Notes: generated by a model not told the origin, from the letters alone. A DNA stretch of 64,000 bases from Actinomycetota bacterium (GCA_040880465.1 JBBDIK010000013.1:9339-73338), one strand, 5' to 3'; positions 30,881 to 46,883 are shown, numbered from the stretch's first letter. Translations and numbers: made by a program.

Positions 30881-30982
30881 GGGGGCGCCTGACGGAGCTG
30901 CCTGACTCGCCAGTCAGGGCCTTCTGCCTGAGGGGCCGTACGCTCGGGTAAAGGAACTCCTACAGACACCCGATTACGGGTA

Positions 30983-31705
30983 GTGGAAACGGAACCCATG
31001 GATATCGATTTCTCTTCTCTCGCGTCCCGCATCGCGGCGGACGTCGGGGGCTTGCGAGGGTGCATCATCGCCTCGCGTGATGGACTCGTACTCGGCGCGT
31101 ACCCCGCCGACGGCGAGGCCGTCCTGCGCCCGGCCTGGCTGCGCTTCGCCGCGCTGGGTGACGTCGAGAAGGGATTCATCGAATTCGGTGGGGAGACATG
31201 GGTCTACGTTCAGCGCGGACCCTACGCCGCCTTCGCGGTGAGTGAAGTCGCCGCTCGTCCAGGCTTGATCCTCGAGGAGATGGAGCAGATCCTCCGCTCG
31301 GCCGAGGAGGCGCGGAGTCGGCAGCCCAGCGTCCGGATGGAGGGCGGCGATGCAGCCCGGAGTAAGCCGCGCACCACGCTGCATCCGGAAGCGCGGCCGT
31401 CCGCTCCGGCTCCGGCCTCGGGCGTTCCAGCTCAGGCTGCATCCGCCAGCCCCGCCCAGGAGGCAGCAGCCCCCGCGCCGCCGCCTACGGATACCCCGCA
31501 GGTCATCTCGACCGACGAGCCACAACCGGCCTCGGAGGTGCCGGCTCCGTCGAGCGACGCCCCGACGCCGTCGCAGGAGGTTGCTCCGGCCGCCTCGCCG
31601 CCGGCCCCACAACCGCAGGAGGGCGATGTGGACCGGGTCTTGCTCGCTCAGGAGTTCGCACAGTTGCTGGAGGACAGCGGCTACGATGACGAGGAGGACG
31701 AGTGA
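30983..31705 (+). CDS. Roadblock/LC7-like domain protein with Pro/Ala/Ser/Gln-rich linker and acidic C-terminal helix; first gene of the pilus ATPase operon
   Basis: N-terminal ~105 aa: VGGLRGCIIASRDGLVLGAYP...GFIEFGGETWVYVQRGPYAAFAVSEVAARPGLILEEM fits the Roadblock/LC7 (MglB-like) alpha-beta-alpha pattern. About 110 aa of low complexity follow. The protein ends VDRVLLAQEFAQLLEDSGYDDEEDE. The start codon is uncertain (GTG 30983 or ATG 30998). Confidence 0.5.
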   Translation: METEPMDIDFSSLASRIAADVGGLRGCIIASRDGLVLGAYPADGEAVLRPAWLRFAALGDVEKGFIEFGGETWVYVQRGPYAAFAVSEVAARPGLILEEMEQILRSAEEARSRQPSVRMEGGDAARSKPRTTLHPEARPSAPAPASGVPAQAASASPAQEAAAPAPPPTDTPQVISTDEPQPASEVPAPSSDAPTPSQEVAPAASPPAPQPQEGDVDRVLLAQEFAQLLEDSGYDDEEDE

Positions 31706-31715
31706 TCGGACCTAG

Positions 31716-33410
31716 ATGGCGGAGGTAAAGAAGGCCAAACAGCTCGGCGAGATCCTCGTCGACGACGGCTTGGTCACCCAGGAGCAACTCGACCACGCGC
31801 TCGAGGAGCACCGCCGTGTCGGCAAGCTCCTCGGACGGGTGCTGATCGACCTCGGCTACATCAAGGAGACCGACCTCGTTCGGGCGCTCGCCCAGCAAGT
31901 CGGGTTCGAGTTCGTCGATCTCAGCGAGTACCAGATCGAGCCCTGGGCGCCGGTGTTGCTGCCCGAGCAGGTCGCCCGCCGTTATCGCGCTCTCCCGATC
32001 GGCGAGCGCGACGGCAAACTCCTCGTGGCGATGTCCGACCCGGCGAACGTCTACGCCCTCGACGACATCCGCATCATCACGGGCCGCGACGTCCAGCCGG
32101 TCGTCGCGACGGCCGCGGACATCGAGCAAGCGCTCCGCCGATACGCCGGGCTCGACGCTCAGGCTGAGGAGCTGGCCGAAGAGGTCGCGGAAGCCGCGGA
32201 CGAGGGCAAGAAGAAGGGGGACGGCGAGGAGGACGAGGAGGAGGACGACGAGGCTCCGATCGTCAAGCTCGTGAACGCGATCATGACGCAGGCCGTCGGC
32301 GACCGAGCCTCCGACATCCACATCGAACCGACCGAGAAGGACGTGCGGGTCCGCTTCCGCGTCGACGGTGTCCTCCACGAGGTGAGTCGCGCCCAGAAGC
32401 GGATCCAGAACGGGCTGACCAGCCGCTTGAAGGTGATGGCGGAGATGGACATCGCGGAGAAGCGGATCCCCCAAGACGGGCGGATCGCGATGCGCGTCGC
32501 GGGCAAGATGCTCGACCTGCGCGTGGTCACCCTGCCGACCGTCTACGGCGAGAAGGTCGTGATGCGTGTCCTGGACAAGAGTTCGGCGCTCCTTCACCTC
32601 GAGGACCTAGGGTTCCTGGAGCACTCGTACAAGCGGTACGAGGAGGCCTACAGCAAGCCGTACGGTGCCATCCTGGTGACGGGTCCGACCGGCGCCGGCA
32701 AGTCGACCACGCTGTACGCCACGCTGAACGTGTTGAACTCCCCGGAACGCAACATCATCACCGTGGAGGATCCGGTCGAATACCGGCTCAAGGGCATCAA
32801 CCAGTGCCAGGTCCACAACGCAGCGGGGCTCACGTTCGCCCGGGCGCTGCGAGCGATCCTGCGCAACTCGCCCGACATCATCCTCGTAGGAGAGATCCGC
32901 GACCGCGAGACGGCCACGATCGCGACCGAGTCGGCGCTGACCGGCCACCTCGTCCTGTCGACGCTGCACACCAACGATGCCCCTTCGGCGATCCCCCGGC
33001 TCATCGAGATGGGGATCGAGACGTTCATCGTGGCATCGTCCATCGACTGCGTCGTCGCGCAGCGGCTGGCGCGCAAGCTCTGTGAGAAGTGCAAGGAGCC
33101 CTACGCGCCGGAGGCGGCCGAGCTGGTCGCGATCGGGTACAACGAGCAGGAGATCGCCGACATCGAACAGCTCTACCGCCCGGTTGGGTGCCCCGCGTGC
33201 TCCAAGACCGGCTACCGGGGCAGGATCGGTCTCTACGAGGTCATGCTCGTCAACGACGATATCGAGCGGCTCACGATCGAGCGGGCACCGGCCGACGAGA
33301 TCCGCAAGGCCGCGATCGCCGAAGGCATGGCGACCCTGCGTGACGACGGCCTCCAGAAGGTCCGGCTCGGGATGACGTCGATCGCCGACGTCCTCCGGGT
33401 GGTTGCCTGA
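31716..33410 (+). CDS. pilB: type IV pilus extension ATPase PilB, copy 1 (GspE/T2SSE family with T2SSE_N/MshEN-like N-domain)
   Basis: 564 aa. Walker A GPTGAGKST, Walker B DIILVGEIRD, tetracysteine CEKC...CPAC. The N-terminal domain carries two 24-aa LGxxLVxxGLV-type repeats. Confidence 0.9.
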   Translation: MAEVKKAKQLGEILVDDGLVTQEQLDHALEEHRRVGKLLGRVLIDLGYIKETDLVRALAQQVGFEFVDLSEYQIEPWAPVLLPEQVARRYRALPIGERDGKLLVAMSDPANVYALDDIRIITGRDVQPVVATAADIEQALRRYAGLDAQAEELAEEVAEAADEGKKKGDGEEDEEEDDEAPIVKLVNAIMTQAVGDRASDIHIEPTEKDVRVRFRVDGVLHEVSRAQKRIQNGLTSRLKVMAEMDIAEKRIPQDGRIAMRVAGKMLDLRVVTLPTVYGEKVVMRVLDKSSALLHLEDLGFLEHSYKRYEEAYSKPYGAILVTGPTGAGKSTTLYATLNVLNSPERNIITVEDPVEYRLKGINQCQVHNAAGLTFARALRAILRNSPDIILVGEIRDRETATIATESALTGHLVLSTLHTNDAPSAIPRLIEMGIETFIVASSIDCVVAQRLARKLCEKCKEPYAPEAAELVAIGYNEQEIADIEQLYRPVGCPACSKTGYRGRIGLYEVMLVNDDIERLTIERAPADEIRKAAIAEGMATLRDDGLQKVRLGMTSIADVLRVVA

Positions 33411-35098
33411 TGGCCCAGGTGCAGAACCGGTCGCGGCAACTCGGCGAGATCCTCATGGAGCGCGGGCTCCTGTCGCCCGAGCAGCTCCAGGCGGCCCTCG
33501 AGGAGCACCAGAAGGCGGGCAAGCTCCTCGGGCGGGTCCTCATCGACAAGGGGTACGTCAGCGAGGCCGACCTCGTCCGAGCGTTGGCCGAGCAAGTTGG
33601 GCTCGAGTTCGTCGACCTGACCGAGTTCCCCGTCGACGCGTCGTGCACGGCCCTGCTTCCCGAATCCGTCGCTCGCCGCTACCGGGCGATTCCCATCGCC
33701 GAGCGCGACGGCAAACTCCTCGTGGCGATGTCCGACCCGGCGAACGTCTACGCCTTGGACGACATCCGCATCATCACCGACCGCGACGTGCAACCCGTCG
33801 TGGCGACGGCCAGCGATGTCGAGGGGGCGATCCGGAAGTTCGCGGGGCTCGACGCGGCGGTCGAGGAACTGGCCGAGGAGATCGCCGAAGCCAAGGACGA
33901 CGAAGACCTCATGGCGGCGGAGGGCATCGCGGTCGAGGAGGCTCCGATCGTCAAGTTGGTCACGGCGATCATCAAGCAGGCGGTGTCGGAACGCGCATCG
34001 GACATCCATATCGAACCCACGGAGCGCGACGTACGCGTGCGATTCCGCGTGGACGGCGTCCTGCACGACGCGATGAAGTCGCCGAAGAGCATCCAGACGG
34101 GGCTCATCTCACGGCTGAAGGTCATGGCGGACCTGAACATCGCCGAGAATCGGCTGCCACAGGACGGGCGGATCAGCGTCAAGGTGAGCGGCAGGCAGTT
34201 CGACCTGCGGCTCGCGACCCTGCCGACCGTCTACGGCGAACGCATGATGATCCGGGTGCTCGACAAGAGCTCGGCACTGATGGAGCTGTCGGACCTGGGC
34301 CTGCTGGAGGACCCCTTCAAGCAGTTCGAGGTGTCCTTCCGTAAGCCGTACGGGGCGGTCCTGGTCACCGGGCCGACGGGCTCGGGGAAGACGACGACGA
34401 TGTACGCCACCCTGTCCTTGATCAACTCGCCCGAGAAGAACGTCATCACGGTCGAGGATCCCGTCGAGTACAAGCTCAAGGGGGTCAATCAGATCCAGGT
34501 GATGCCGAAGCAGGGGCTGACGTTCGCCGGGTCCCTGCGCGCCATCCTGCGTGCCGACCCGGACATCGTGCTGATCGGGGAGATCCGCGACCGCGAGACC
34601 GCCATCATCGGTATCGAGGCCGCACTCACCGGCCACCTCGTGCTGTCGTCCCTGCACACGAACGATGCCGCCTCCGCCGTCACCCGTCTGACCGAGATGG
34701 AGGTCGAAACGTTCCTGGTGGCTTCCGCGATCGAGTGCGTGGTGGCCCAGCGCCTCGCGCGCATCCTGTGCGATAAGTGCAAGGAGGCTTACCAGCCCGA
34801 TACCCCCGAATTGGCGGCTGCAGGCTATCCTGAGAGTGCGTGGTCCGAGATCGGGCAGCTCTTCCGCCCAACCGGCTGCAAGGCGTGTTCAAATACCGGG
34901 TACCGCGGACGGATCGGCCTCTACGAGGTCCTGACCGTCACGGAGGAGATCGAGCATCTGACGGTGGAACGGGTGCCGTCCGCGAGGATCGCCGACGTGG
35001 CGATCGAGCAAGGGATGATGACGTTGCGTGAGGACGGACTGGAGAAGGCTCGGCGGGGGATCACCTCCGTCCAGGAAGTGCTGAGGGTGGTGGTGTAG
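33410..35098 (+). CDS. pilB: type IV pilus extension ATPase PilB, copy 2 (tandem paralog)
   Basis: 562 aa, collinear with copy 1. Walker A GPTGSGKTT, DIVLIGEIRD, CDKC...CKAC. Its start ATG overlaps the copy 1 stop (TGATG). Confidence 0.9.
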   Translation: MAQVQNRSRQLGEILMERGLLSPEQLQAALEEHQKAGKLLGRVLIDKGYVSEADLVRALAEQVGLEFVDLTEFPVDASCTALLPESVARRYRAIPIAERDGKLLVAMSDPANVYALDDIRIITDRDVQPVVATASDVEGAIRKFAGLDAAVEELAEEIAEAKDDEDLMAAEGIAVEEAPIVKLVTAIIKQAVSERASDIHIEPTERDVRVRFRVDGVLHDAMKSPKSIQTGLISRLKVMADLNIAENRLPQDGRISVKVSGRQFDLRLATLPTVYGERMMIRVLDKSSALMELSDLGLLEDPFKQFEVSFRKPYGAVLVTGPTGSGKTTTMYATLSLINSPEKNVITVEDPVEYKLKGVNQIQVMPKQGLTFAGSLRAILRADPDIVLIGEIRDRETAIIGIEAALTGHLVLSSLHTNDAASAVTRLTEMEVETFLVASAIECVVAQRLARILCDKCKEAYQPDTPELAAAGYPESAWSEIGQLFRPTGCKACSNTGYRGRIGLYEVLTVTEEIEHLTVERVPSARIADVAIEQGMMTLREDGLEKARRGITSVQEVLRVVV

Positions 35099-36301
35099 GT
35101 GGCGACGACCGCTGCTGCGGACGAAGACGTACAGATCCCGATCCCCGAACTGCTCGAGGTGATGCTCTCGCGCGGAGCCTCGGATCTGCATATCACGGCC
35201 GGTGCGCCACCGACGATCCGGATGCACGGTGAGCTGGTCCGCCTGGAGGAATACCCGCTGCTCACCCCGCGGGGGTTGCAGGGCATGATCTACGCGATCC
35301 TGCCGCAACGGCACCGCGAACACCTCGAGCAGGACCTCGAGTTGGACATGTCCTACGCGCTGCCCGGGAAGGCCCGGTTCAGGGTCAACGTGTACTGGCA
35401 GCGTGACTCGCTCGGGTCGGCGTTCCGCCTCATCCCCTACGAGATCAAGTCGACGGACGAGTTGCGGCTCCCCGAGGTCGTCAAGGAGCTGGCCCGGTAC
35501 CCGCGTGGGTTCATCGTCGTGACGGGCCCGACAGGCTCAGGCAAGTCCACGTCCCTGGCGGCGATGATCGACCAGATCAACAACGAACTGCCCGTCCACA
35601 TCATGACCGTCGAGGATCCCATCGAGTTCCTGCACAAGCACAAGACCGCGATGATCAATCAGCGCGAGGTGGGGGCGGACACCCACGGGTTCGGTCCCGC
35701 CCTCAAGCACGTGCTCCGTCAGGACCCCGACGTCATCCTGGTCGGGGAGATGCGAGACCTCGAGACCGTCCAGACGGCGATCACCGCCGCCGAGACCGGT
35801 CACCTCGTCTTCGCCACCCTGCACACCCAGGACGCGCCGCAGACCATCGACCGGATCATCGACGTTTTCCCATCGCACTCGCAGCAGCAGATCCGGGTGC
35901 AGCTCTCGACCACCCTGCAGGGCGTCATGACCCAGCAGCTCCTTCAGACGCCGGACGGGCAAGGCCGGGTCGTCGCCTGTGAGGTCTTGATCGCGACGTC
36001 GGCGGTGCGCAACCTGATCCGGGAGGGGAAGGTGCACCAGATCTACTCGGTGATGCAGTCGGGTGGTCGGTTCGGGATGCAGACGATGGACCAGGCGTTG
36101 GCGGACCTGGTCAAGACGGGACAGATCACGCAACAGCTTGCCCTGGAACGCTGTCACGACCCCGAGGAGTTGACCCGCCTGATGAGCGGCGGTGTCTCTG
36201 CCGGGGCGGCGACCGGATTCGCACCGGGCGGGGAGTACGCGCAACAGGGTGCTCCCCAGCAGGCATACCCGCCCATGGGCGGCGGGATACCGCAGGGCTG
36301 A
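35099..36301 (+). CDS. pilT: twitching-motility retraction ATPase PilT (with Gly/Gln/Pro-rich C-terminal tail)
   Basis: ASDLHITAGAPPTIRMHG, GPTGSGKSTS, ILVGEMRDLETV, AETGHLVFATLHT (PilT AIRNLIRE-like SAVRNLIREGK). 400 aa, about 35 aa longer than usual at the C-terminus. Confidence 0.9.
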   Translation: MATTAAADEDVQIPIPELLEVMLSRGASDLHITAGAPPTIRMHGELVRLEEYPLLTPRGLQGMIYAILPQRHREHLEQDLELDMSYALPGKARFRVNVYWQRDSLGSAFRLIPYEIKSTDELRLPEVVKELARYPRGFIVVTGPTGSGKSTSLAAMIDQINNELPVHIMTVEDPIEFLHKHKTAMINQREVGADTHGFGPALKHVLRQDPDVILVGEMRDLETVQTAITAAETGHLVFATLHTQDAPQTIDRIIDVFPSHSQQQIRVQLSTTLQGVMTQQLLQTPDGQGRVVACEVLIATSAVRNLIREGKVHQIYSVMQSGGRFGMQTMDQALADLVKTGQITQQLALERCHDPEELTRLMSGGVSAGAATGFAPGGEYAQQGAPQQAYPPMGGGIPQG

Positions 36302-36316
36302 TGAGAGGAGGAGCCC

Positions 36317-37531
36317 GTGGCTGAGACATTCTTGTACAAGGCACGGGACCGCACGGGCAAGGTCGTCAGCGGCGAACTGATCGGCGACAGCGAGCAGCTC
36401 GTCATCGCCAAGCTGCGCGAACAGGCCCTCGTCCCCATCGAGGTATCGAAGAAGTCCGCCGGCATGAAGCGCGAACTCACGTTCCGGCCGGGGCGGGTCA
36501 AGCTCAAGCTGATGTCGGTGTTCTCGCGTCAGTTCGCCACCATGGTGAACTCCGGTCTCCCCATCCTGCGTGCGCTGGCGATCCTGGCGGAGCAGACCGA
36601 ATCGCAGGAACTCGCCAAGATCCTCACCCGCGTCCGGATGGACGTCGAGCAGGGAGCATCCCTGTCCGGCGCCATGGCCAAGCATCCCAAGGTCTTCGAC
36701 GACCTCTACGTGTCGATGGTCAAGGCCGGTGAGACCGGCGGTGTGCTCGACTCGGTCCTGCTGCGACTCGCCGACCAGATCGAGAAGGAGGTCTCGCTCC
36801 GGAACCGTATCAAGTCGGCGATGACCTACCCGGTCGTGGTGCTGCTGATGGTGCTGTTCATCCTTGCGGCGATGCTCCTCTTCATCGTCCCGCAGTTCGA
36901 GAAGATCTACGCGGACCTGGGCAGCCAGCTCCCGCTTCCGACGCGCGTCCTCCTGGGCGCTTCGAAGGCGCTCCGGGACTACTGGTACCTGTTCATCGGT
37001 GGATCGATCGGCGGCTGGTTCGCGCTCAAGCAGTGGAAGAAGACGGACTCCGGGCGCGAAGCGGTCGACCGATTCAAGCTTCGCGTGCCGGTCTTCGGCC
37101 CACTCTTCCGCAAGACGGCCCTGTCGCGGTTCTCCAGCACGCTGGGCGTGCTCCTGCGGTCCGGCGTACCGATCCTGCAGGCCCTGGATATCGTCGCCGA
37201 CACGGTCGGGAACCGGGTCGTGAGCAAGGCCGTTTCGGACGTACAGGTCAGTGTGCGCGAGGGCGAGAGCATCGCCAAACCGTTGTCCCAGCACGCGGTG
37301 TTCCCACCGATGGTCGTGCAGATGCTCGCGGTGGGCGAGGAGACGGGTGCGGTCGATACCATGCTCGAGAAGGTTGCGCAGTTCTACGATGAGGAGGTCA
37401 CCGCCGCGGTCGACTCCCTCACATCCCTGATCGAGCCGCTGATGATCGCCGTGATCGGCGGGGCCGTCGGCATGTCCGTCATCGCCCTCTACTTGCCGAT
37501 GTTCAACATCATCAACCTGATCAACGAGTAG
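36317..37531 (+). CDS. pilC: type IV pilus platform protein PilC (GspF family)
   Basis: 404 aa. Two T2SSF repeats and three TM segments. GGAGGAG SD upstream of the GTG at 36317. Confidence 0.9.
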   Translation: MAETFLYKARDRTGKVVSGELIGDSEQLVIAKLREQALVPIEVSKKSAGMKRELTFRPGRVKLKLMSVFSRQFATMVNSGLPILRALAILAEQTESQELAKILTRVRMDVEQGASLSGAMAKHPKVFDDLYVSMVKAGETGGVLDSVLLRLADQIEKEVSLRNRIKSAMTYPVVVLLMVLFILAAMLLFIVPQFEKIYADLGSQLPLPTRVLLGASKALRDYWYLFIGGSIGGWFALKQWKKTDSGREAVDRFKLRVPVFGPLFRKTALSRFSSTLGVLLRSGVPILQALDIVADTVGNRVVSKAVSDVQVSVREGESIAKPLSQHAVFPPMVVQMLAVGEETGAVDTMLEKVAQFYDEEVTAAVDSLTSLIEPLMIAVIGGAVGMSVIALYLPMFNIINLINE

Positions 37532-37646
37532 CCGGCCCGGGCCGCCTCGAGCCCCGGATCCGGCTCACGGTCGCGCCCGACACGCCGGACTGAGCGCGGG
37601 TGCTAGGCTGGACTCCATCGTATGCCCTAGGGCTGATGGCCTAGTC

Positions 37647-37668
37647 AAGACCCCCCGGTCGGGGTCTT
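37647..37668 (+). terminator. GC-rich hairpin downstream of pilC (AAGACCCC-ccggtc-GGGGTCTT), no U-tract
   Basis: Read directly. The 8-bp stem lies in the pilC-pilA intergenic region. Function (terminator or processing site) is not established. Confidence 0.3.
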
Positions 37669-37751
37669 CAGCTATCGATCCGAGCGGCCGATGAAAGAAA
37701 CATGGGTTGGCTCCAGCGGGGAGCCGACATTGCAGCGAAAGGAGGCTCCTC

Positions 37752-38237: not shown

Positions 38238-38272
38238 AGCACGACGCGAACGACGGTTCATTCGAACCCCAC

Positions 38273-38300
38273 AGAAGGGCGGCCTTCGGGCCGCCCTTCT
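38273..38300 (+). terminator. intrinsic-terminator-like hairpin after pilA
   Basis: AGAAGGGCGGCC-TTCG-GGCCGCCCTTCT, a perfect 12-bp stem with a TTCG tetraloop, 36 nt after the pilA stop. No U-tract follows, which is common in high-GC actinobacteria. Confidence 0.7.
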
Positions 38301-38395
38301 GCGTGACTATCGGTGGGCTGTCGGTCAGATATCCGACAGGCGCACGGCTCAAGCGAATCAGAGCCTCGGCCGATACCTAGAGATAACGGGGTGCT

Positions 38396-40360
38396 GTGCG
38401 TAGAATGGGGTTCGAGATGGATCGCGATCTGAACGTGCTCGTGCGTGTCGTCCGTCGCCTCCGCAGCGAGGACGACGGGTTCACGATCGTGGAGGTCATG
38501 GTGGCGTCCCTCATCCTGCTGATCGCCATCCTGTCGACCGCCTACACGGCGACCATCGGGTTCACGTACTCGGCCCGCGCGCGACAGAAGCAAGACGCGA
38601 CCGGCGTCGCCAACTCCGTGTTCGAGGATGTCCAAGGCTTCTCCGAAACCATCCTGATGGAGGGCCTCGATTCTGCCGACCTGGACGCCAACAACGCCGG
38701 GCTCGTGCCCTGCGCGGGTGATTCCACGACCTGGTGCCTGGGGACGTCGAGCGGCGAGCAGGTGCTCGAGTCGACGGCCACCGAAGCTTCCGTCCTGAAT
38801 CCGCATGAGAGCACCGTCGAAGTGGGTCCGACAACGTTCTACCGGACGGTCTTCATCACGAAGGTGGATGGTGGAACGGATCAGCTTCGGGTTACGATCG
38901 AGATCACTTGGGGCACTCTCGATCCGGACACCGGTGAGTGGGAGAACACCCTCGTCTTGGACAAGGTCCTCGAGACCACGACGAGCTGTCCGATCGAGAC
39001 GTTGCATCCGTTCGGGGGTCCGTGCGGAACCGTCGTCACGGGCGAGGCCAACATATCGGACGGGTCGATCACGGTCTCGCCGTACGGGTCGACGCTTACT
39101 CCACCTTCTACGGCGACTGCGGATATCGCGCCGTTCACGAACGTTGCCAATCTGCTGGTCGTCACCCCGCCGTCCGTGGGAATGGACCTGGCCGCCGAGC
39201 AGGCGGGATCGGTGAGTGGAAGCGTCGTCACGTCCGGGGGCTACAGGAGCTTGACGACGGTCTCAGGGCAGACGACGACGGTGACGGAGGACGTGTGCGG
39301 GACGATCAGCGCGGCCTCCGCCGCGAACGACACCGAGCAGGGAAGCGACCCCTTCTCGCAGGTGTCGCCGACCGACCAGACGGGGTGCATCGCTCCCGGC
39401 TACCTGACCACCTTCCTGACGTCACCGCCCTCAACGACCGTGTCGAGGCTGGTGCTGGAGAAGCGGACGGCGGACGCATCGGCGACGACCGTGAGTTCGG
39501 TCACGGCCGCCGGGTCGGAGCAGTGCCCCAGCGGTAGCAACTCGAGTGCGGCATGCGGGTACGGGACCGTCCGGCAGGCCGGTACCACATGGATCAACTC
39601 CCTGGCCTACGCCGGGTCTCTGTCTGCGGGCAACTGCGGCCTGGTCCAATCCGATGCACGGACCTCCGCGAGTTCGGTCCAGAGCCAGAAGGTCGGCGGC
39701 AAGGTGGTCACGACCATCACGCGCAATCTGCCGAACGTCACGATCGGGTGCCTTCCCCCGAACCTCACGTCGTTGGCAAACGGAACCGCCACGGTGCCGC
39801 CCGCCTGGAACGCCCCGAGCCCCGCCTTCACCTCAACGACCGGGCGCACGGTCCCCGGGGCGACCGCCGGGACGTACCAGGGCTACATGCTGCGGATGTA
39901 CGGCATGACCGAGACGACCATCATCGAAGCTGGTACGGGCGCGGCGAATCCCGTCTACTCCCGGTCCGGGTCCATCCGGCACTGGAACGGATCCGGCTAC
40001 ACGACGACGACGATCACCAACAACACGTGCAGCCCCTCGTGCACGATCAGCCCGGCGACGCTGACCCTGGGCTTCACCGGCTCGGCGGCTCAATCGAAAG
40101 CCACCATCACGGGCGGTACGGGATACCTGTGCGCGCGACTGACCCCGACGTCGTTCACGGTTCCGTCCCTGTCGACCTCGGCAAGCACCACGTCGTTCCC
40201 GGACCCGCTCACGGGCTTCAGCCTGACGGAGCGCATCTTGACCCGGACGAGCACCCAGACCTGTGACTCGAACGCTGGGGGGGGCTTTACGACCGCGCTG
40301 AACGTGACGGTGAGTCCGAGCCTCGGGACGGCGACGGCATCCGTGACCGCTGATGGATGA
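38396..40360 (+). CDS. very large minor pilin (PilV-like prepilin N-terminus plus a Ser/Thr/Cys-rich domain of about 600 aa)
   Basis: ...RRLRSEDDG|FTIVEVMVASLILLIAIL prepilin signal (G-1, F+1, E+5). 654 aa. The remainder is Thr/Ser-rich with many Cys. Exact start is uncertain (38396 or 38405). Confidence 0.7.
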   Translation: MRRMGFEMDRDLNVLVRVVRRLRSEDDGFTIVEVMVASLILLIAILSTAYTATIGFTYSARARQKQDATGVANSVFEDVQGFSETILMEGLDSADLDANNAGLVPCAGDSTTWCLGTSSGEQVLESTATEASVLNPHESTVEVGPTTFYRTVFITKVDGGTDQLRVTIEITWGTLDPDTGEWENTLVLDKVLETTTSCPIETLHPFGGPCGTVVTGEANISDGSITVSPYGSTLTPPSTATADIAPFTNVANLLVVTPPSVGMDLAAEQAGSVSGSVVTSGGYRSLTTVSGQTTTVTEDVCGTISAASAANDTEQGSDPFSQVSPTDQTGCIAPGYLTTFLTSPPSTTVSRLVLEKRTADASATTVSSVTAAGSEQCPSGSNSSAACGYGTVRQAGTTWINSLAYAGSLSAGNCGLVQSDARTSASSVQSQKVGGKVVTTITRNLPNVTIGCLPPNLTSLANGTATVPPAWNAPSPAFTSTTGRTVPGATAGTYQGYMLRMYGMTETTIIEAGTGAANPVYSRSGSIRHWNGSGYTTTTITNNTCSPSCTISPATLTLGFTGSAAQSKATITGGTGYLCARLTPTSFTVPSLSTSASTTSFPDPLTGFSLTERILTRTSTQTCDSNAGGGFTTALNVTVSPSLGTATASVTADG

Positions 40361-40973
40361 GCCGGCAGCCGTGAGGACCTCTTCCGCTCCGAACGGGAGA
40401 ACGGCCGAGGATGGTTTCACGCTGGTTGAGGTGATGGTCGCGTCGGCGGTCATGATGGTCGTGATCGGAATGGCCGTCACGCTGCTGTTCAGCATCCAGC
40501 GAGGGGTTGAGCGGCAGGTGGACCGGCAGCAATCCGTGGATCAGGCCCGCCTCGCCGTGGAGCAGATCGACCGTGAGTTGCGCTCGGCGTCATCGATGAG
40601 CGAACTGAACGGCGGCGAAGGCCTGGTCGCCTTCACACTGAGCAACCAGGACACCCGGGAGGTCTCGACGGGAACCTGCGTCGAGTGGCGGGTCAGCGGA
40701 GGTAACCTCGAGACCAGGATCTGGCCGTCCGACTTCGCGGTGGGGAGTTCGTATCCATGGAGGATCGTGGCGACGGACATCGTCAATCCGGCCGGTGACC
40801 CGATCTTCGACGTCGATACAGGAGCGCTCTACGAGGGCCGTCTCGTGCACGTGCATGTATTGGTCAACGCGAACAACGCCTCGGGAAGAGATGTGGAGCT
40901 GAACACCGATCTCGCGGGGCGCAATATCGTGGTCGGCGAGGTGGATCCATGTGCGGCCTCACAGCCGGCGTAG
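40353..40973 (+). CDS. minor pilin (PilW-like prepilin)
   Basis: ...GRTAEDG|FTLVEVMVASAVMMVVIGMAV prepilin signal. 206 aa. Overlaps the upstream gene by 8 nt. Confidence 0.75.
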   Translation: MDEPAAVRTSSAPNGRTAEDGFTLVEVMVASAVMMVVIGMAVTLLFSIQRGVERQVDRQQSVDQARLAVEQIDRELRSASSMSELNGGEGLVAFTLSNQDTREVSTGTCVEWRVSGGNLETRIWPSDFAVGSSYPWRIVATDIVNPAGDPIFDVDTGALYEGRLVHVHVLVNANNASGRDVELNTDLAGRNIVVGEVDPCAASQPA

Positions 40974-40993
40974 GGAGCCGAAGGAGTAGAGGG

Positions 40994-42727
40994 ATGATGA
41001 TGCGAGTGCGGCGCGATGAATCCGGCCTGGCGATGGTCGTGGTCCTGCTGGTGACGCTCGTGCTGGTTTCGCTCTCGCTGGTCGTCGTTCAACTCGCTTC
41101 GCATAGCACGACGTCGAGCAGTTACGACCAGCGTCGTCTCCAGGCCGTTCACGCGGCAGAGACCGGCATCAACGAATATCTGACGGTCCTGCCGACCACG
41201 TACGGTCCCGGGCTCTGCGCTGACGGCCTCTTGGATCCAGGACCCATCTCCACGTCGCCTCTCCTCGAATACACGTTGGACGTCGAGTTGCGCGACGGCG
41301 GCACGACCGTGGGTTGCGCCGGCTACGACGGCAGGACCGTCGACACGGCGATCATCACCTCCACGGCAACGGCCGGGACCGCGACGGCGAACTCGACCGC
41401 GGTCACCCGGGTGCTGCGGGAAGAGGTTACGCTCACGCCCATCGACGGCGACGAAATGAACCAGGTCATCTACGCGACTAACAGCGTCGACATCAGCGGC
41501 AACGTGGACATCAACGGGTCTGCGACGGAGAACGATGCGGATATCTACGTCGCCGGCGACTTCGCCGTCAACAACTACGCGAATGTCGAAGGGTCCGTGT
41601 ACGCGAAGGGAAACGTCTCGCTCGGCCCGGCGTGTTACGCCGGGAGCATCTACGCGGACGGCAACGTAGAGAGCAACGGTGGCTCCTACGTCAACTACAT
41701 CTGCAACGGGAATACGCAGAAGCCGGGCGCCGTGGTGTGGGATAACGGCTACACGTATACGGTGCCCGCCGACGAGGGTGGGATCTGGGCCCGGGGGAAC
41801 ATCACGCTGGGCAACAACGCGTACTCCTACGGGTGGTGCACGAGTCCAGGGGCGATCAGCGTCAACCACTGCTCGGGGTTCAACCCGACCAACACGAACG
41901 GGTTCCCCGCGAACTGCCCCAACCACCTGGCGCCCGGGCCGAACCAGGATCTCAACGCCTGCGGGATCAACCGGACGCCGCCACTGGTGGAGACGCTCCC
42001 CTTCCCGTCGCTTACGTACTCGGCCGCCGACTGGACGGCCGATGGCTACGCGGTCCACAACTACACCACCTGTGCTGCGGGGCAGTCGGCCCTCGTGGCC
42101 TACCTTACCGGCGTCAACCCCGTGCCCGCGTACGGCGGTACGCCTGCATGGACCGCCGCGGAGATGACCGGCAAGAACGTCCTCAGGATCACGAGTACGC
42201 CGACGACCCCGGTCTGTGCGGTGACATTGAGCGGCATCTCCGGCACACTGCCGAACGATCTCGCCGTGATCGTCGACGGGTCCTTCGAGACGGGGGACAG
42301 CGGGGGCGGCGTGCAGATCACCAACTCGGGGGCCGAGACGCACACGTTCTACGTGATCCGGCCGCCGAACGGAACGCCTGCGATAAACCCGACCCCTGGG
42401 TGGAACCCGCGCACGGGTGATGCCTCCACGGCGAACTGCGATGTGACGGCTTCGAGTGCCACGCAGAACGGATCCCTGGCTAAGAAGGACCAGAAATATA
42501 CGAGCAAGACCGACATGTCGACGATCAACTTCTTCTCGTACACCCCGTGCGCCATCTACGCGTTCAACCAGAACAAGTCCGGGAGCGGCCAGTACATCGC
42601 GGGCGACACGGTCTTCATCAAGAACTCGTTCACCCTCAACTTCAACAAGAGCGACGTGCCGGGGGTCGTGCCCATCGGCTACGAGGCCGCGCCCGTGTAC
42701 GTCCAGGAACTGCGGGCAACGCCTTAG
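40994..42727 (+). CDS. large PilX-like minor pilin / putative tip protein
   Basis: AAGGAG lies 7 nt before the ATG at 40994. MMMRVRRDESG|LAMVVVLLVTLVLVSLSL is PilX_N-like (no E+5). 577 aa, with a repeat-containing Asn/Gly/Tyr-rich domain. Confidence 0.6.
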   Translation: MMMRVRRDESGLAMVVVLLVTLVLVSLSLVVVQLASHSTTSSSYDQRRLQAVHAAETGINEYLTVLPTTYGPGLCADGLLDPGPISTSPLLEYTLDVELRDGGTTVGCAGYDGRTVDTAIITSTATAGTATANSTAVTRVLREEVTLTPIDGDEMNQVIYATNSVDISGNVDINGSATENDADIYVAGDFAVNNYANVEGSVYAKGNVSLGPACYAGSIYADGNVESNGGSYVNYICNGNTQKPGAVVWDNGYTYTVPADEGGIWARGNITLGNNAYSYGWCTSPGAISVNHCSGFNPTNTNGFPANCPNHLAPGPNQDLNACGINRTPPLVETLPFPSLTYSAADWTADGYAVHNYTTCAAGQSALVAYLTGVNPVPAYGGTPAWTAAEMTGKNVLRITSTPTTPVCAVTLSGISGTLPNDLAVIVDGSFETGDSGGGVQITNSGAETHTFYVIRPPNGTPAINPTPGWNPRTGDASTANCDVTASSATQNGSLAKKDQKYTSKTDMSTINFFSYTPCAIYAFNQNKSGSGQYIAGDTVFIKNSFTLNFNKSDVPGVVPIGYEAAPVYVQELRATP

Positions 42728-42769
42728 GGGACCTCGCGGCTCGCTTGCATATCGCGGTAGGGTTCGCGA

Positions 42770-43549
42770 GTGCCCCTTGCCGTCGCGGTGGTGATCTGGT
42801 TCCTCTTCGGGCTCGTGTTCGGCTCCTTCGTCACGGTGCTCGTCTACCGGGTGCCACGGCACGAGTCCATCGCCAAGCCGGGTTCGCGGTGCCCAAGGTG
42901 TGGAACGCCGCTTCGGGTTATCGATAACGTCCCGGTCGTCTCGTACCTGATCCGCCGCGGCAGGTGCCATGCCTGTGGCGAGCGCATCTCCGCCCGGTAC
43001 CCCCTCACCGAGCTGGCAACCTCCGCCCTGTTCGTCCTGGCTGCCCTCGCGTTCCCCGAGGAGCCGTTCGTGGCCGGGGTCATCGCGATCTTCTTCGGCG
43101 TACTCCTGGCCCTGTCGCTGATCGACTTCGAACACCGGATCCTTCCGAACGCGATCACCTACCCGTCCCTGGTCATCTTCGCCATCGCCGTCGTCGCGGG
43201 GCAGCTCCTCGGGACGGGGATGTCCATCCTGGGGGCCGGCCTCGGCCTCCTTGGATACGCGGGGGCGCTGTTCCTCATCGCGTTCCTGTACCCCAAGGGG
43301 ATGGGGATGGGCGACGTGAAGCTCGTTGCCCTGATCGGGCTGGTTGCCGGGTCCCTGGGGGCCGCCGAGGTGGTCGTGGCCGCGGCAGCGGGCTTCTTCA
43401 GCGGGGGCATCGTGGGGCTTGGCGTGCTCCTGGTGCGGCGCCGGCGAGGCCAGACGATGCCGTTCGGGCCCTTCCTGGCCTTCGGGGCGGTCGTAGGGAT
43501 CCTCGTGGGGCCTCAGATCGCCTCCTGGTACCTGGGTCTGCTCGGGTAG
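42770..43549 (+). CDS. pilD: prepilin peptidase / N-methyltransferase PilD (A24 family)
   Basis: CPRCGTPL...RGRCHACGERI (DiS-P-DiS domain). Catalytic Asp contexts are LIDFEHRILPN and GMGDVKL. Eight predicted TM helices. Confidence 0.9.
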   Translation: MPLAVAVVIWFLFGLVFGSFVTVLVYRVPRHESIAKPGSRCPRCGTPLRVIDNVPVVSYLIRRGRCHACGERISARYPLTELATSALFVLAALAFPEEPFVAGVIAIFFGVLLALSLIDFEHRILPNAITYPSLVIFAIAVVAGQLLGTGMSILGAGLGLLGYAGALFLIAFLYPKGMGMGDVKLVALIGLVAGSLGAAEVVVAAAAGFFSGGIVGLGVLLVRRRRGQTMPFGPFLAFGAVVGILVGPQIASWYLGLLG

Positions 43550-43601
43550 CCCCTCAGCCGGACCTTGCAGCCCACATCCGCAGAAAGTCCTCAGGCACGC
43601 C

Positions 43602-43628
43602 GAAAACCCCTCCTGAGCGGGGGTTTTG
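43602..43628 (+). terminator. intrinsic terminator after pilD
   Basis: GAAAACCCC-tcctgagc-GGGGGTTTTGG. The stem is followed by, and partly includes, a T-run. Confidence 0.6.
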
Positions 43629-43656
43629 GCGCTCCCGGGTTTTGTAGCGGATGTGT

Positions 43657-43685
43657 TTGAAAACTCTTGTTGCTACTGTTACTTT
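43657..43685 (+). promoter_or_regulatory. candidate sigma-70-type promoter for the HTH-pilMNO operon
   Basis: TTGAAA, a 17-nt spacer, then TACTTT. It lies in the most AT-rich stretch of the window, about 100 nt upstream of the HTH gene. Confidence 0.35.
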
Positions 43686-43739
43686 CCGTGGCGCCTGACC
43701 TTCCTGATGCGGGATGAGGTTTTTGGTGTGAACAGTTGT

Positions 43740-43784
43740 CTCAGGTGCCACATGTTACGTGTAGACGCACGTATGGCACCTGAG
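43740..43784 (+). promoter_or_regulatory. 45-nt extended inverted repeat / hairpin abutting the SD of the HTH gene
   Basis: CTCAGGTGCCA-catgt-TACGTG-tagacg-CACGTA-TGGCACCTGAG. The outer arm is 11 bp and the inner arm 6 bp. The 3' arm runs into the GAGGAGG SD (43782-43788). Confidence 0.6.
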
Positions 43785-43789
43785 GAGGT

Positions 43790-44005
43790 GTGCGGCCCTT
43801 GAGCAAGAAGCGTGGTTTTTCGAGTGACCGGCTGCTGACGGTCGGGGAGGTCGCGAACGCGATGCGGGTCTCCAACATGACCGTGTACCGCCTGATCAAG
43901 GCGGGGCAGCTGGCCGCCATCCGGGTCGGCAAGAACTATCGGATCCGGGAGTCGGATGTGGACCGGTACCTATCGTCCCGGTCGGTCAAGGTGGAGGGGA
44001 CCTGA
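43790..44005 (+). CDS. excisionase-family (MerR-like, HTH_17-type) small DNA-binding protein, first gene of the pilMNO operon
   Basis: LLTVGEVANAMRVSNMTVYRLIKAGQLAAIRVGKNYRIRESDVDRYL is the canonical Xis-type wing-helix pattern. Its stop overlaps the pilM ATG (TGATG). The start may be GTG 43790 or TTG 43799. Confidence 0.75.
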   Translation: MRPLSKKRGFSSDRLLTVGEVANAMRVSNMTVYRLIKAGQLAAIRVGKNYRIRESDVDRYLSSRSVKVEGT

Positions 44006-45060
44006 TGGCGGGACCGCGGATCGGTCTGGACGTCGGCTCCACCGCCGTGCGCGCTGCCGAGCTGCGCTTCGGCGGCGATGTGCCGACGCTGGTGCGCGCG
44101 GCGCAGGTTCCGTTGCCGGCCGGTGCCGTCGAGGGCGGCGAGATCCGTGACTCCAACGTGGTGGGGGAGGCGCTCCGCGAACTTTGGGGCCGCGGCGGGT
44201 TCCGGTCCAAGCAGGTCATCATGGGCGTCGGCAACCAGCGCGTCGTCGTCCGCGAGGTCGCTCTGCCGTTCCTCCCGGAGAAGGAACTCCGGCAGTCGCT
44301 CGCCTACCAGGTGCAGGAGTTCATCCCGATCTCGGTGGAAGAAGCCGTCCTGGACTACGACACGCTCGGCGAGTTCGAGCACGAAGGACGCAAGATGCTC
44401 CGGCTGCTGCTCGTTGCGGCGCACCGACAGATGGTGAACATGGTCGTCGACGCGACCGAGCACGCGAAGCTGCAGCTCATCGGTCTGGATCTGAACCCCT
44501 TCGCCTTGGTGCGCGCGGTCGGCGCGATCGATGCCTCGCTGGACGAGGAGAGCGAGGGGGAAGAAGCCCTCGTGGACATCGGCGCCCACGTCACCAACAT
44601 CTGTGCGCACGACCGCGGCGTGACGCGGTTCGTCCGTATCCTGCCCTCCGGGGGACGCGACATCACGGTCGCGATCGCTCGTTCGCTCGGGATCAGCGAG
44701 GAGGACGCGGAGCGGCTCAAGCGCGGCGAGCCCGTCGAAGGTGGCCCGAGCGTGGAGGAGGCGCGCGCACTGGCGATGACGCGCGCATCCGGGTTCGTCG
44801 ACGAGATCCGGAGCTCGCTGCAGTTCTACACGGCGCAGTCGCCGGGGACCCGGATCGGACGCATCCTGCTGAGTGGCGGGGGGTCCAAGCTCGACGGACT
44901 GCTGGAGCTGTTCCAGGAACGGCTGCCGGCGCCCGTCGACCGGGGCCACGCCCTGCAGCGCGTCAAGTCCGAGTTGACCCTGACCGAAGAGGCGCTGGCG
45001 GAGGCTGAGCCGGTGCTGACCGTGGCGATCGGGCTGGGGATCCAGGGGAGGCGTGCGTGA
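44005..45060 (+). CDS. pilM: type IV pilus assembly protein PilM (actin-like ATPase fold)
   Basis: IGLDVGSTAVRAAEL..., GVGNQRVVVREVALP, LIGLDLNPFALVRAV, LLSGGGSKLDGL. Confidence 0.9.
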   Translation: MAGPRIGLDVGSTAVRAAELRFGGDVPTLVRAAQVPLPAGAVEGGEIRDSNVVGEALRELWGRGGFRSKQVIMGVGNQRVVVREVALPFLPEKELRQSLAYQVQEFIPISVEEAVLDYDTLGEFEHEGRKMLRLLLVAAHRQMVNMVVDATEHAKLQLIGLDLNPFALVRAVGAIDASLDEESEGEEALVDIGAHVTNICAHDRGVTRFVRILPSGGRDITVAIARSLGISEEDAERLKRGEPVEGGPSVEEARALAMTRASGFVDEIRSSLQFYTAQSPGTRIGRILLSGGGSKLDGLLELFQERLPAPVDRGHALQRVKSELTLTEEALAEAEPVLTVAIGLGIQGRRA

Positions 45061-45686
45061 GCCAGGTCAACCTCCTCCCCCCCGAAGTACGCCAGAAGAT
45101 CAAGCTCCGGCGTCTGACGATCGGGATCGGGCTCGCGGGATCCGGTGTGATCGCGCTGCTCATCCTGTTCTGGGTCGCACAGGGTGTGACGCTGCAGCGG
45201 GTCGAGCGGGAGACCACCGCGCAGGAGGCGACGAACGCAGAGCTGACGACCCAGGTGAATGACCTCCAGGTGTATCAGGATCTCGAGGACCAGCTGACAT
45301 CGCGGGACACCTTGGTGGCGTCAGCCCTGGAGAACGAGGTGTCGTGGTCCAGCGTCCTGCGTGACGTGCAGTTGATCATCCCGGACCGCATCGGGCTCTC
45401 GAGCTTCACGGGCTCGATCAATGAGGCTGGCAATGCTGGCGAGGAGGAGGAAGTCGGCATCATCGGCGAGATGGAGTTCGGAGGCCAGTCGGAAGGCACC
45501 CTGCGCCTCGCGCGATGGATCGCACGTCAGACGGAGGTCAACGGGTGGGCGAACCCGTGGCTCAGCAGCGCCACCGAGACGGAGGAATTCTCGAACCAGT
45601 ACGAGTTCAGCTCGACGGTTGACCTGTTGACCGGCGCCACGACTCCGCGGGGCAAGGGTCCGACGGGGACGGAGGCGGGGGCATGA
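45057..45686 (+). CDS. pilN: type IV pilus assembly protein PilN
   Basis: (V)SQVNLLPPEVRQK, the conserved PilM-binding N-terminus, followed by a TM helix. GTGA overlap with pilM. Confidence 0.8.
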   Translation: MSQVNLLPPEVRQKIKLRRLTIGIGLAGSGVIALLILFWVAQGVTLQRVERETTAQEATNAELTTQVNDLQVYQDLEDQLTSRDTLVASALENEVSWSSVLRDVQLIIPDRIGLSSFTGSINEAGNAGEEEEVGIIGEMEFGGQSEGTLRLARWIARQTEVNGWANPWLSSATETEEFSNQYEFSSTVDLLTGATTPRGKGPTGTEAGA

Positions 45687-46258
45687 ATCGGCGAGCTCCC
45701 ATCTTCGTCGGTATCGGCGTCGTGGTGGCGATCGTCCTCGTCTTGCTCGTGCTCGTGATGCCGCAGCGTGGCAAGGTGAGTGACGCGCAGGCGGCGCTCG
45801 AAACGGCCCAGGCCGCGGAGCTCACCTTGCGTACGGAGCTCGAAGGTCTGCTGGAGCTGAAGAAGAGCGCGCCCGAGTTCCAGCGCCAGCTGGACCAGGC
45901 GAAGACGCTGATCCCCGAGCAGGCGGACATCCCGGGCCTGATCCGCAACCTGCAGCTCGTCGCCAACAAGACCGGGGTGGATTTCGCCGTTCTCGGCGTA
46001 TCGAACCCCCAGCTGAGCGAGCAAGGGGATTTCTCAGCTATCGCTCTTACGATCACGATCAGCGGGACATTCATCCAGGTATCGCAGTACCTCTTCGAGA
46101 TCGAGCATCTCCCGCGAGCCCTGAAGATCCTCAACGTAACGGTCAGCCCAACCGAATATCCGACGCTGAGCTCGAACCTGTCCGTGGAGACGTATACGAC
46201 CGACATAGCTTCCGGTCCGGGGACACAGCCAGGCTCCCAAGCGGCTGAGGGAGGGTAG
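45683..46258 (+). CDS. pilO: type IV pilus assembly protein PilO
   Basis: TM helix, coiled coil, then IPGLIRNLQLVANKTGVDF...ITISGTFIQVSQYLFEIEHLPR, a typical PilO core. ATGA overlap with pilN. Confidence 0.8.
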   Translation: MNRRAPIFVGIGVVVAIVLVLLVLVMPQRGKVSDAQAALETAQAAELTLRTELEGLLELKKSAPEFQRQLDQAKTLIPEQADIPGLIRNLQLVANKTGVDFAVLGVSNPQLSEQGDFSAIALTITISGTFIQVSQYLFEIEHLPRALKILNVTVSPTEYPTLSSNLSVETYTTDIASGPGTQPGSQAAEGG

Positions 46259-46270
46259 GCTGAGGTAACC

Positions 46271-46834
46271 ATGGCACTCTCACCATCGGACAAGCGAGCA
46301 CTGATCATCCTCGGGGCGGTGGCGGGGATCGCCATCGTCGTGTTCCTCGGGATGAAACTCTTGGGCGGCGGGGGTGGGGACGAGGCTGCATCTCCGGTCG
46401 CCGATGGCACCTCCCCGGGTGCGACCACCTCCGACGTGTCTCCGGCGCCATCGACGGGCGACGGGACCACCGGGGTGAGTCCGGCTCCGCCGGGAACGGA
46501 CTCGTTCGTGATCAGCGGGAAGGACCCCTTCAGCCCGCTACCCTTGGTGACTCCGTCGGTGAGCGTGAGCCCGGTGCCCGGCGAGTCGCCGAGCACCGGC
46601 ACCTGCGAGCAGACCGCGACGATCGACGGGAACGAGGTCACCCTCAATAAGGTGATCGACAAGGCCGATGCCGACATCGTGAAGGTCACGGTCAACGACT
46701 CCCCCTACAGCGCAGCGCAAGGCGATACGTTCGCCCGCTACTACACGGCCGTCGTGGTCGATCCGACGGCTGCCCAGGCGGAGTTCAACTACAGCAAGGG
46801 CTCGGTGAACGAGTCCTTCACCCTCTGCATCTAG
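46271..46834 (+). CDS. membrane-anchored PilP-like protein (TM helix, Pro/Ser/Thr linker, GKDPF motif, small beta domain)
   Basis: KRALIILGAVAGIAIVVFLG TM helix, then a PST-rich linker, then SGKDPFSPL (compare the R/K-DPF motif of PilP/GspC-type proteins). A C-terminal domain of about 75 aa is bracketed by two Cys. Its position directly after pilO supports the call. Confidence 0.4.
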   Translation: MALSPSDKRALIILGAVAGIAIVVFLGMKLLGGGGGDEAASPVADGTSPGATTSDVSPAPSTGDGTTGVSPAPPGTDSFVISGKDPFSPLPLVTPSVSVSPVPGESPSTGTCEQTATIDGNEVTLNKVIDKADADIVKVTVNDSPYSAAQGDTFARYYTAVVVDPTAAQAEFNYSKGSVNESFTLCI

Positions 46835-46871
46835 GCGCCGCAGGCGAGGTCGGCCCTATGCGCCGCGTGTG

Positions 46872-46877: not shown

Positions 46878-46883
46878 GGAGAC

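Follow-up and report, generated by a model that had tools for sequence, protein, structure and literature searches.

A predicted monoderm-type type IVa pilus system at an apparently old site between aroE and aroC of an Actinomycetota genome

Introduction

What is a set of type IV pilus genes doing between two housekeeping genes of an actinobacterial chromosome, and did it arrive there recently or has it long belonged there? The question is raised by a 64,000-nucleotide stretch from an Actinomycetota bacterium (GCA_040880465.1, JBBDIK010000013.1:9339-73338; hereafter the window, in whose coordinates all positions are given), where a run of pilus (pil) genes occupies positions 30983-46834, between aroE and aroC. 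A first-pass annotation made from the sequence had described the region as a functional type IV pilus locus of four units, inserted as lineage-specific content into a block of housekeeping genes. The analysis reported here makes it very probable that a functioning type IVa pilus (T4aP) system of the monoderm type is encoded in the region, with probable sigma-28-type regulation, at an old, vertically inherited aroE-aroC site.

Results

Gene content and identity of the system

The region holds 15 intact genes, all on the + strand, in an unbroken chain between aroE and aroC. Open reading frame (ORF) listing and translation recovered every gene of the earlier list, with neither a frameshift nor an internal stop in any of them. 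The stop codon of one gene overlaps or adjoins the start codon of the next at pilB1/pilB2 (33410), at pilB2/pilT (35098/35099), between the gene of a small helix-turn-helix (HTH) protein and pilM (44005), and along pilM/pilN/pilO. Gene identities were assigned by scans with curated Pfam and NCBIfam profiles and their model cut-offs. Related loci (80, numbered with the prefix L) were collected by scanning a genome collection with a PilC alignment, and the window proteins were mapped to them by tblastn; the nearest relative (L001, GCA_040960375.1) has a PilC about 96-97% identical to that of the window. The PilD protein of the window has an identical counterpart in an NCBI entry titled "MAG: Actinomycetota bacterium", and a lookup with the exact PilB1 sequence gave no match. 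The genes of the pilus machine are the following.

31716-33410, + strand: pilB1, extension ATPase with an MshEN N-terminal domain (TIGR02538, 677 bits against a cut-off of 675.65; MshEN, 82.6 bits; motif model for cyclic di-GMP (c-di-GMP) binding, 68.4 bits)
33410-35098, + strand: pilB2, tandem paralogue 67% identical to pilB1 (TIGR02538, 630.8 bits, below the cut-off of 675.65)
35099-36301, + strand: pilT, retraction ATPase (TIGR01420, 480.8 bits against a cut-off of 319.1; AVRNLIREGK motif, AIRNLIRE-like)
36317-37531, + strand: pilC, platform protein (two T2SSF (PF00482) stretches, 232 bits; PilC NCBIfam models)
37752-38237, + strand: pilA, major pilin (N_methyl, 30.9 bits; leader of 14 amino acids (aa) ending in EEEG and followed by FTLIELM; two C-terminal Cys)
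38396-40360, + strand: large minor pilin of 654 aa with G/FTIVE (N_methyl, 19.2 bits, below the gathering threshold; weak PilV match)
40353-40973, + strand: minor pilin of 206 aa with G/FTLVE (N_methyl, 28.6 bits)
40949-42727, + strand: PilX-like large minor pilin without Glu5 (PilX_N, 24.2 bits, just under the threshold of 25.5)
42770-43549, + strand: pilD, prepilin peptidase with a four-Cys N-domain (A24_N_bact, 113 bits; Peptidase_A24, 48.9 bits)
44005-45060, + strand: pilM (PilM_2, 163 bits; TIGR01175, 213.5 bits)
45057-45686, + strand: pilN (N-terminus MSQVNLLPPE; recognised through Amuc_1101 and through its counterpart in L004)
45683-46258, + strand: pilO (PilO, 50.9 bits; GspM, 32 bits)

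The components by which a T4aP system is recognised were found: PilB, PilT, a two-domain PilC, a prepilin peptidase, a major pilin with a class III signal (G/F followed by E5; mature length about 148 aa), and PilM-PilN-PilO. PilN has no Pfam match of its own; it matches the PilN portion of the PilM-PilN fusion family Amuc_1101 at E 3.7e-4, and PF05137 is matched by the protein in the corresponding position of L004 (tblastn identity 34%). The VNLLP at its N-terminus is a PilM-binding motif known from Thermus. As to PilP and the PilQ secretin, which mark diderm systems, a Pfam scan of the locus revealed no secretin gene, in agreement with the first-pass annotation, and the last gene of the region, ORF187, has no PilP match. 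Their absence fits the monoderm form of T4aP.

Profile scores favoured type IVa over the two machines that could have been indicated instead, and the earlier T4aP assignment was retained. A Tad/Flp pilus was rejected on the score of the TadA model TIGR03819 (49 bits against 373), the single two-domain PilC and the length of the mature pilin; a Com pseudopilus was rejected on the ComGA (252-253 against 300) and ComGB (145 against 240) scores and the presence of PilT together with PilMNO.

Assembly and retraction of a pilus are predicted from this gene content, each step following the established functions of the protein families. PilD, whose domain make-up is of the bifunctional type (A24_N_bact plus Peptidase_A24) with a predicted methyltransferase activity, would cut the leaders off PilA and the three minor pilins, and PilC, PilM, PilN and PilO would build the membrane platform. 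Extension would be driven by one or both PilB hexamers and retraction by PilT, and the monoderm envelope would make a secretin unnecessary. Surface adhesion, twitching and possibly DNA uptake would be the likely outputs.

It is unlikely that uptake is the main one of these, the locus serving as a competence pilus and not for motility or adhesion. T4aP with PilT mediate DNA uptake in many bacteria and the gene set is compatible with this task, but neither the locus nor its immediate surroundings contain comEA, comEC or dprA, the ComGA and ComGB scores stay below the model cut-offs, and published work on actinobacterial T4aP, as cited in PMC8325347, reports adhesion in Actinoplanes. Uptake and motility or adhesion are, moreover, not exclusive functions.

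Chromosomal position and inheritance

The position of the locus was compared across the related loci, starting from its two borders.

29996-30880, + strand: aroE, upstream flank (Shikimate_dh_N and SDH_C)
46884-48032, + strand: aroC, downstream flank (Chorismate_synt, 375.6 bits)

In the nearest relative, gene order is identical over the recovered part, from pilB1 to past nusB, including both PilBs, the HTH gene and a homologue of ORF187. At least 6.5 kb of sequence upstream of pilC is available in 53 loci, and aroE/mltG precedes the pil genes in 47 of them; aroC is reached within the 10-kb downstream flank in 21 of the 41 loci with at least 9.5 kb downstream. The loci that share the site are titled as metagenome-assembled genomes (MAGs) of Acidimicrobiia, Actinomycetes, Frankiales, Mycobacteriales, Nanopelagicales and Coriobacteriia, besides Kineosporia babensis. 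For PilC, PilT, PilD and PilM, identity to the window proteins correlates with AlaS identity (Spearman rho 0.70-0.73). Because the site recurs across classes and because identity tracks AlaS, the aroE-[pil]-aroC position is most simply read as old and vertically inherited in Actinomycetota. A paper describing this synteny was not found in the literature, and a search there for locus tags of the mycobacterial or corynebacterial peptidase discussed below likewise yielded nothing of use.

The flanks named in the first-pass annotation (alaS-ruvX-mltG-aroE and aroCKBQ-pepP-efp-nusB) were all present. Pfam identified ruvX, mltG (YceG) and aroE upstream and aroC and aroK downstream, and aroB, aroQ, pepP, efp and nusB were named through 82-93% tblastn identity to Pfam-annotated genes of the nearest relative. 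Translations read by eye show the usual actinobacterial housekeeping block in the remaining parts of the window (1-25400 and 52000-64000), with pdxS/T, yebC, ruvC, yajC, secD/F, apt, relA, dtd, rarA and alaS, then pyrR, pyrB and carA/B; neither a sigma factor nor a GTPase or PATAN gene was seen there.

Mycobacterial contigs were reached with the chorismate synthase of M. tuberculosis, reconstructed from a PDB alignment. In Mycolicibacterium (L087) the order is alaS-ruvX-YceG-aroE, a 130-aa Peptidase_A24 gene, an MFS gene, and aroC-aroK-aroB, followed further on by pepP-efp-nusB. In a second mycobacterial contig (L090), an error-rich assembly, SDH_C, Peptidase_A24 and chorismate synthase are fused in one gene call, which indicates the same aroE-A24-aroC adjacency. 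In M. ulcerans, A24-homologous sequence spread over two frames lies in the uncalled gap between aroE and aroC (L088:9540-9882) and is probably a pseudogene of the same peptidase. The 130-aa peptidase, presumably of the Rv2551c type, resembles the C-terminal domains of PilD from pil loci (E down to 3e-8, 31-50% identity) and keeps both catalytic Asp motifs. In the M. tuberculosis contig, the sequence upstream of aroC is too short to reach the place of the peptidase. The first-pass annotation had mentioned an orphan prepilin-peptidase-like gene beside aroE/aroC in corynebacterial and mycobacterial genomes, which would make the present locus the intact form of a relic; for mycobacteria the gene or its remnant was found in the three contigs, and its homology to PilD C-domains at the same site upholds that description. 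Lineages such as mycobacteria would have lost the pilus machine and retained a truncated A24 peptidase. In the gene numbering of C. glutamicum, five genes lie between aroC and aroE (PMC9705862).

These observations bear on the first-pass view of the pil genes as inserted, lineage-specific content, that is, a horizontally acquired island, which we now consider very unlikely. Such an island would account for the dip in guanine-plus-cytosine (GC) content, from 0.68-0.70 in the flanks to 0.635-0.66 at about 34-43 kb, and for the near adjacency of aroE and aroC in mycobacteria. However, the same position is occupied in those 47 of 53 loci from several classes, identity of the Pil proteins tracks that of AlaS, and in mycobacteria a peptidase remnant persists at the site. 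The GC minimum, moreover, lies at 37-39 kb, inside the cassette of pilA and the three minor pilins. This cassette is hypervariable: between the window (37752-42727) and the nearest relative (L001:5016-9936) its proteins are 41-60% identical, with a ratio of nonsynonymous to synonymous substitution rates (dN/dS) of 0.38-0.49 where estimable, against 96-97% identity and dN/dS of 0.02-0.04 for the machinery proteins of the same pair of genomes.

Selection on the machinery

Measured against the nearest relative, dN/dS is 0.022-0.038 for PilB2, PilT, PilC, PilM and the HTH protein and 0.07-0.16 for PilD, PilN, PilO and ORF187; for aroC and efp, taken as housekeeping controls, it is 0.06. The machinery is under strong purifying selection and is selectively maintained. 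Judged by these machinery values (0.02-0.16), the earlier description of the locus as functional appears sound. That the locus is decaying or silent would be compatible with an organism that is uncultured and known from sequence, yet there are neither frameshifts nor internal stops, the machinery evolves at or below housekeeping dN/dS and the reading frames abut or overlap at several junctions, which leaves decay or silence extremely improbable. A type II secretion-like pseudopilus, hinted at by a PilB1 score just over the GspE equivalog cut-off (630.6 against 630.25) and by the resemblance of PilO to GspM, is equally far-fetched, given the presence of PilT, PilM, PilN and PilO, the absence of GspC, GspD and GspL, a PilB1 that passes the PilB model too, a PilC that fits PilC models better than GspF, and a monoderm envelope.

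Transcription units and promoter motifs

The four-unit layout of the first-pass annotation was upheld, as was a terminator after pilA, where a strong hairpin follows the gene. Control elements were located as follows.

30949-30976, + strand: P1, sigma-28/WhiG-like promoter motif, TAAA-N16-CCCGATTA, ending 21 nt before the ATG of ORF1 at 30998
37668-37694, + strand: P2, sigma-28/WhiG-like promoter motif, TCAG-N15-GCCGATGA, upstream of pilA
38349-38376, + strand: P3, sigma-28/WhiG-like promoter motif, TCAA-N16-GCCGATAC, upstream of the minor-pilin operon
38272-38301, + strand: terminator hairpin after pilA, with no T-run (containing 59-nt fold, free energy dG -32.3, z -3.91)
43598-43647, + strand: terminator-like hairpin with a T-run after pilD (weak, fold z-score -0.8)
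43739-43790, + strand: inverted repeat/hairpin with a ATGTGGCAC element, overlapping the ribosome-binding site (RBS) of the HTH gene (dG -30.4, z -4.55)

P1 to P3 are near the consensus TAAA-N15/16-GCCGATAA of sigma-28/WhiG/FliA promoters and precede three of the four units: ORF1-pilB1B2TC, pilA, and the minor pilins with pilD. A pattern covering all three has four matches in the 64 kb on both strands, every one within the locus and on the + strand, where shuffled sequence gives 1.15 ± 1.0; because the pattern was composed after P1-P3 had been seen, this statistic is weak alone. Relatives supply independent support. Of 55 pilA-upstream regions (the window and 54 related loci), 25 contain CCGAT[AG] 45-75 nt before pilA together with a correctly spaced -35 element of the CTCAA/CTAAA type, against 6.7 ± 2.3 in shuffles and 7 on the opposite strand. 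Seven related loci have an equivalent of P1 in front of their ORF1 homologue, at a distance of about 25-35 nt. Taken together, the motifs indicate that the locus is probably under sigma-28-type control: transcription would proceed in four units, three of them behind sigma-28/WhiG/FliA-type promoters. Matches in a sigma-70 promoter scan did not exceed chance, and an Rfam scan of 30000-47500 found neither a riboswitch nor another RNA family. The fourth match of the sigma-28-like pattern, TCAA-N16-GCCGATGC at 46644-46671, falls within ORF187, some 240 nt before aroC starts, and may be a chance match or an internal promoter.

The fourth unit, HTH-pilMNO-ORF187, would have a control region of its own. 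Across 12 loci, the 160 nt preceding the HTH gene show an enrichment of about 100-fold for the ATGTGGCAC element (ATGTG[GA]C); the element was found there in L001, L011-L023 and L040, often as palindromic or direct repeats, and is not enriched over the window as a whole. The repeat over the RBS may be a candidate operator or RNA switch, and the element would probably be bound by the HTH protein encoded just downstream.

Candidate regulators and genes of special interest

Three genes of the region lie outside the machine itself.

30998-31705, + strand (alternative start 30983): ORF1, divergent Roadblock/LC7 domain (about residues 1-110 from the ATG at 30998), P/A/S-rich disordered region and conserved acidic tail (AlphaFold2 and Foldseek)
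43799-44005, + strand: small excisionase-family/BldC-like HTH protein of 68 aa (HTH_17, 58 bits; TIGR01764, 66 bits against 28.8; BldC PDB 6ama, E 7e-5)
46271-46834, + strand: ORF187, bitopic membrane protein of 187 aa with a transmembrane helix, an S/P/T-rich linker and a beta-rich C-domain, of no recognised family (profile scans and reading of the family)

For the HTH protein, an excisionase-family domain was confirmed by TIGR01764 and HTH_17, in line with the Xis-type HTH of the first-pass list. Its nearest solved relative is BldC of Streptomyces (PDB 6ama, E 7e-5), and its score with the BldC family model NF033787 is 31.4 against a cut-off of 77. It is well conserved, at 61-80% identity across loci against 34-55% for PilD outside the nearest relative, with a dN/dS of 0.03.

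ORF1 gave no Pfam match at threshold (Robl_LC7, 12.9-14.1 bits against a gathering score of 23), and 34 of 48 homologues match Robl_LC7 weakly (best E 3.6e-4). An AlphaFold2 model with a predicted local distance difference test score (pLDDT) of 87.3 has the alpha-beta-beta-alpha-beta-beta-beta(-alpha) topology of Roadblock domains, and the top 50 Foldseek matches are all Roadblock, MglB, MglC or LAMTOR proteins (best E 5e-7; TM scores of 0.6-0.65 among the best). The "Roadblock-like" label given earlier to the first gene thus holds at the level of the fold. Its C-terminal half is rich in P, A and S, with a conserved acidic motif at the very end. The family is small, with about 92 clusters, all metagenomic or MAG-derived, whose few named members are Actinomycetota.

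Lineages differ in what they carry in the slot between aroE and pilB. An ORF1-type Roadblock protein occupies it in 16 loci of the clade of the window, DUF4388 (PATAN) alone in 14 loci, many labelled Acidimicrobiia, and Robl_LC7, DUF4388 and a Ras-like small GTPase together in at least 10 loci labelled as orders of Actinomycetes, as Coriobacteriia or generically; examples of the domain content by lineage are L051:3759-6191, L070:4585-6682 and L025:5789-6553. ORF1 would represent what this lineage carries in a regulator slot preceding pilB. In L083, the trio of Robl_LC7, DUF4388 and GTPase is located between the two pilB genes.

Both PilBs retain every ATPase catalytic motif and the Zn-Cys motif in alignment, and the sister clade's single PilB is about equally distant (67-73%) from the two. 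A tandem pair of this type was found in the window and its nearest relative only; by tblastn, the two PilBs present in each of L082 and L083 arose apparently independently. The MshE c-di-GMP motif model NF053729 scores 68 bits for PilB1 and 72 bits for PilB2 against a cut-off of 38, and the MshEN N-domains of both suggest a post-translational c-di-GMP input. Clostridium is known to have duplicate PilBs whose MshEN domains bind c-di-GMP.

Further features of the ATPases were noted. PilT ends in a 40-residue G/A/P/Q-rich low-complexity tail (residues about 360-400, window 36176-36298) past the PilT family model. ATPase copy number varies among lineages, with two PilTs in L006 and L069 and two PilBs in L082 and L083. 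In the cultured Kineosporia babensis (L084:7820-9976), a single long ATPase ORF of 544 aa, PilT-like by tblastn, stands between aroE and pilC and is preceded by an ORF of 158 aa; no PilB-like match was recorded there by tblastn.

ORF187 belongs to a small family of about 100 representatives. Pfam, NCBIfam and PDB profile searches with it returned nothing meaningful, and a single-sequence AlphaFold2 model (pLDDT 45.7) was unusable. The first-pass label "PilP-like" found no profile support and was dropped: none of 46 family members matches PilP (PF04351), seven give a weak T2SSM match, and no lipobox was seen on reading.

Discussion

Several points weigh against a working, sigma-28-controlled T4aP system at an old, vertically inherited site. 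The organism is uncultured and the pilus case is built from sequence alone; the vertical-inheritance case consists of an identity correlation and synteny, not a reconciled phylogeny, and the taxonomy of the loci is taken from record titles, many of them generic. On the regulatory side, the promoter pattern was post hoc, no whiG/fliA gene was found on reading the 64-kb window, and the window holds no MglA-like GTPase partner for ORF1. Among the tandem 24-residue motifs of MshEN, motif 1 has Gln in place of its first Arg in both PilBs, which makes their binding of c-di-GMP uncertain. Lastly, neither the second PilB nor ORF187 has an assigned role.

Surveys and two experimental systems had already made T4aP of Actinomycetota known, and the machine is thus no novelty in itself. 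The first-pass remark that such pili are barely characterised in the phylum was overstated, publications existing on the zoospore pili of Actinoplanes and on the WhiG-controlled pil cluster of Rubrobacter (PMC8325347, PMC12871210). What the window adds is a fixed, phylum-wide chromosomal address for the pilus locus inside a housekeeping block, and gains and losses of the locus are therefore traceable by synteny. The orphan prepilin-peptidase gene beside the mycobacterial shikimate genes is thereby accounted for. Two conserved regulator candidates also emerge, the Roadblock/PATAN/GTPase slot and the BldC-like HTH coupled to pilM, both of which lend themselves to tests in cultured relatives, for example Kineosporia, Actinoplanes or Rubrobacter.

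These elements can tentatively be joined in one broader reading, which is possible but somewhat short of probable. In it, the aroE-[T4aP]-aroC arrangement would be ancestral in Actinomycetota and the mycobacterial A24 peptidase its last remnant, which may now serve Tad/Flp pilins; the slot upstream of pilB would hold a spatial pilus regulator of the MglA/MglB/PATAN type, of which this lineage would retain only an orphan Roadblock protein whose disordered tail has an acidic tip. If this were true, control of pili by G-proteins and Roadblock proteins would extend to monoderm actinobacteria.

Comparison with known systems

One close parallel is Rubrobacter radiotolerans, an actinobacterium whose T4aP cluster has three sigma-28-type motifs in equivalent positions (PMC8325347). 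According to that source, three WhiG promoters with mapped starts inside the pil cluster drive three units, the cluster is under an (RsiG)2-(c-di-GMP)2-WhiG switch, and the consensus is TAAA/GCCGATAA. By contrast, neither whiG nor rsiG was found in the present window, and its promoters are predicted from motifs. WhiG control of pil genes has also been predicted in several actinobacterial families in a 2026 preprint (PMC12871210). The zoospore pili of Actinoplanes missouriensis are likewise T4aP of the phylum; as cited in PMC8325347 and PMC12871210, they have a role in adhesion and are transcribed by sigma factors of the FliA/WhiG family (Kimura 2019). A. missouriensis differs in being a filamentous sporangium former with flagellated spores.

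For the slot upstream of pilB, the model is provided by MglA/MglB, which in Myxococcus and Thermus govern the polarity of T4P (PMC3199381, PMC4316618). Superposed on MglB, the Roadblock fold of ORF1 gives a TM score of about 0.63, and other actinobacterial pil loci carry Roadblock, PATAN and Ras-like GTPase in the equivalent slot. ORF1 differs as an orphan with no GTPase in the window, a score below the Robl_LC7 threshold and a long disordered tail, and GTPase-activating activity cannot be inferred for it. A linkage of PATAN with MglB and orphan actinobacterial MglB homologues had been noted earlier (PMC4316618); literature linking Roadblock/MglB, PATAN or GTPase to actinobacterial pil loci was not found.

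The short mycobacterial A24 peptidase shares with the present locus its chromosomal position, homology to the PilD C-domain and both Asp motifs, and differs in its length of 130 aa, the lack of A24_N_bact and the absence of the other pil genes. Finally, the monoderm T4aP of Firmicutes, as in Clostridium and Streptococcus sanguinis (PMC6916266), resemble the locus in their clustered PilB/PilT/PilC/PilD/PilMNO genes, their long-leader class III major pilin and their lack of a secretin. They belong to another phylum, and to their common plan the present locus adds a sigma-28-type promoter layout, a Roadblock protein, a BldC-like HTH and the aroE-aroC site.

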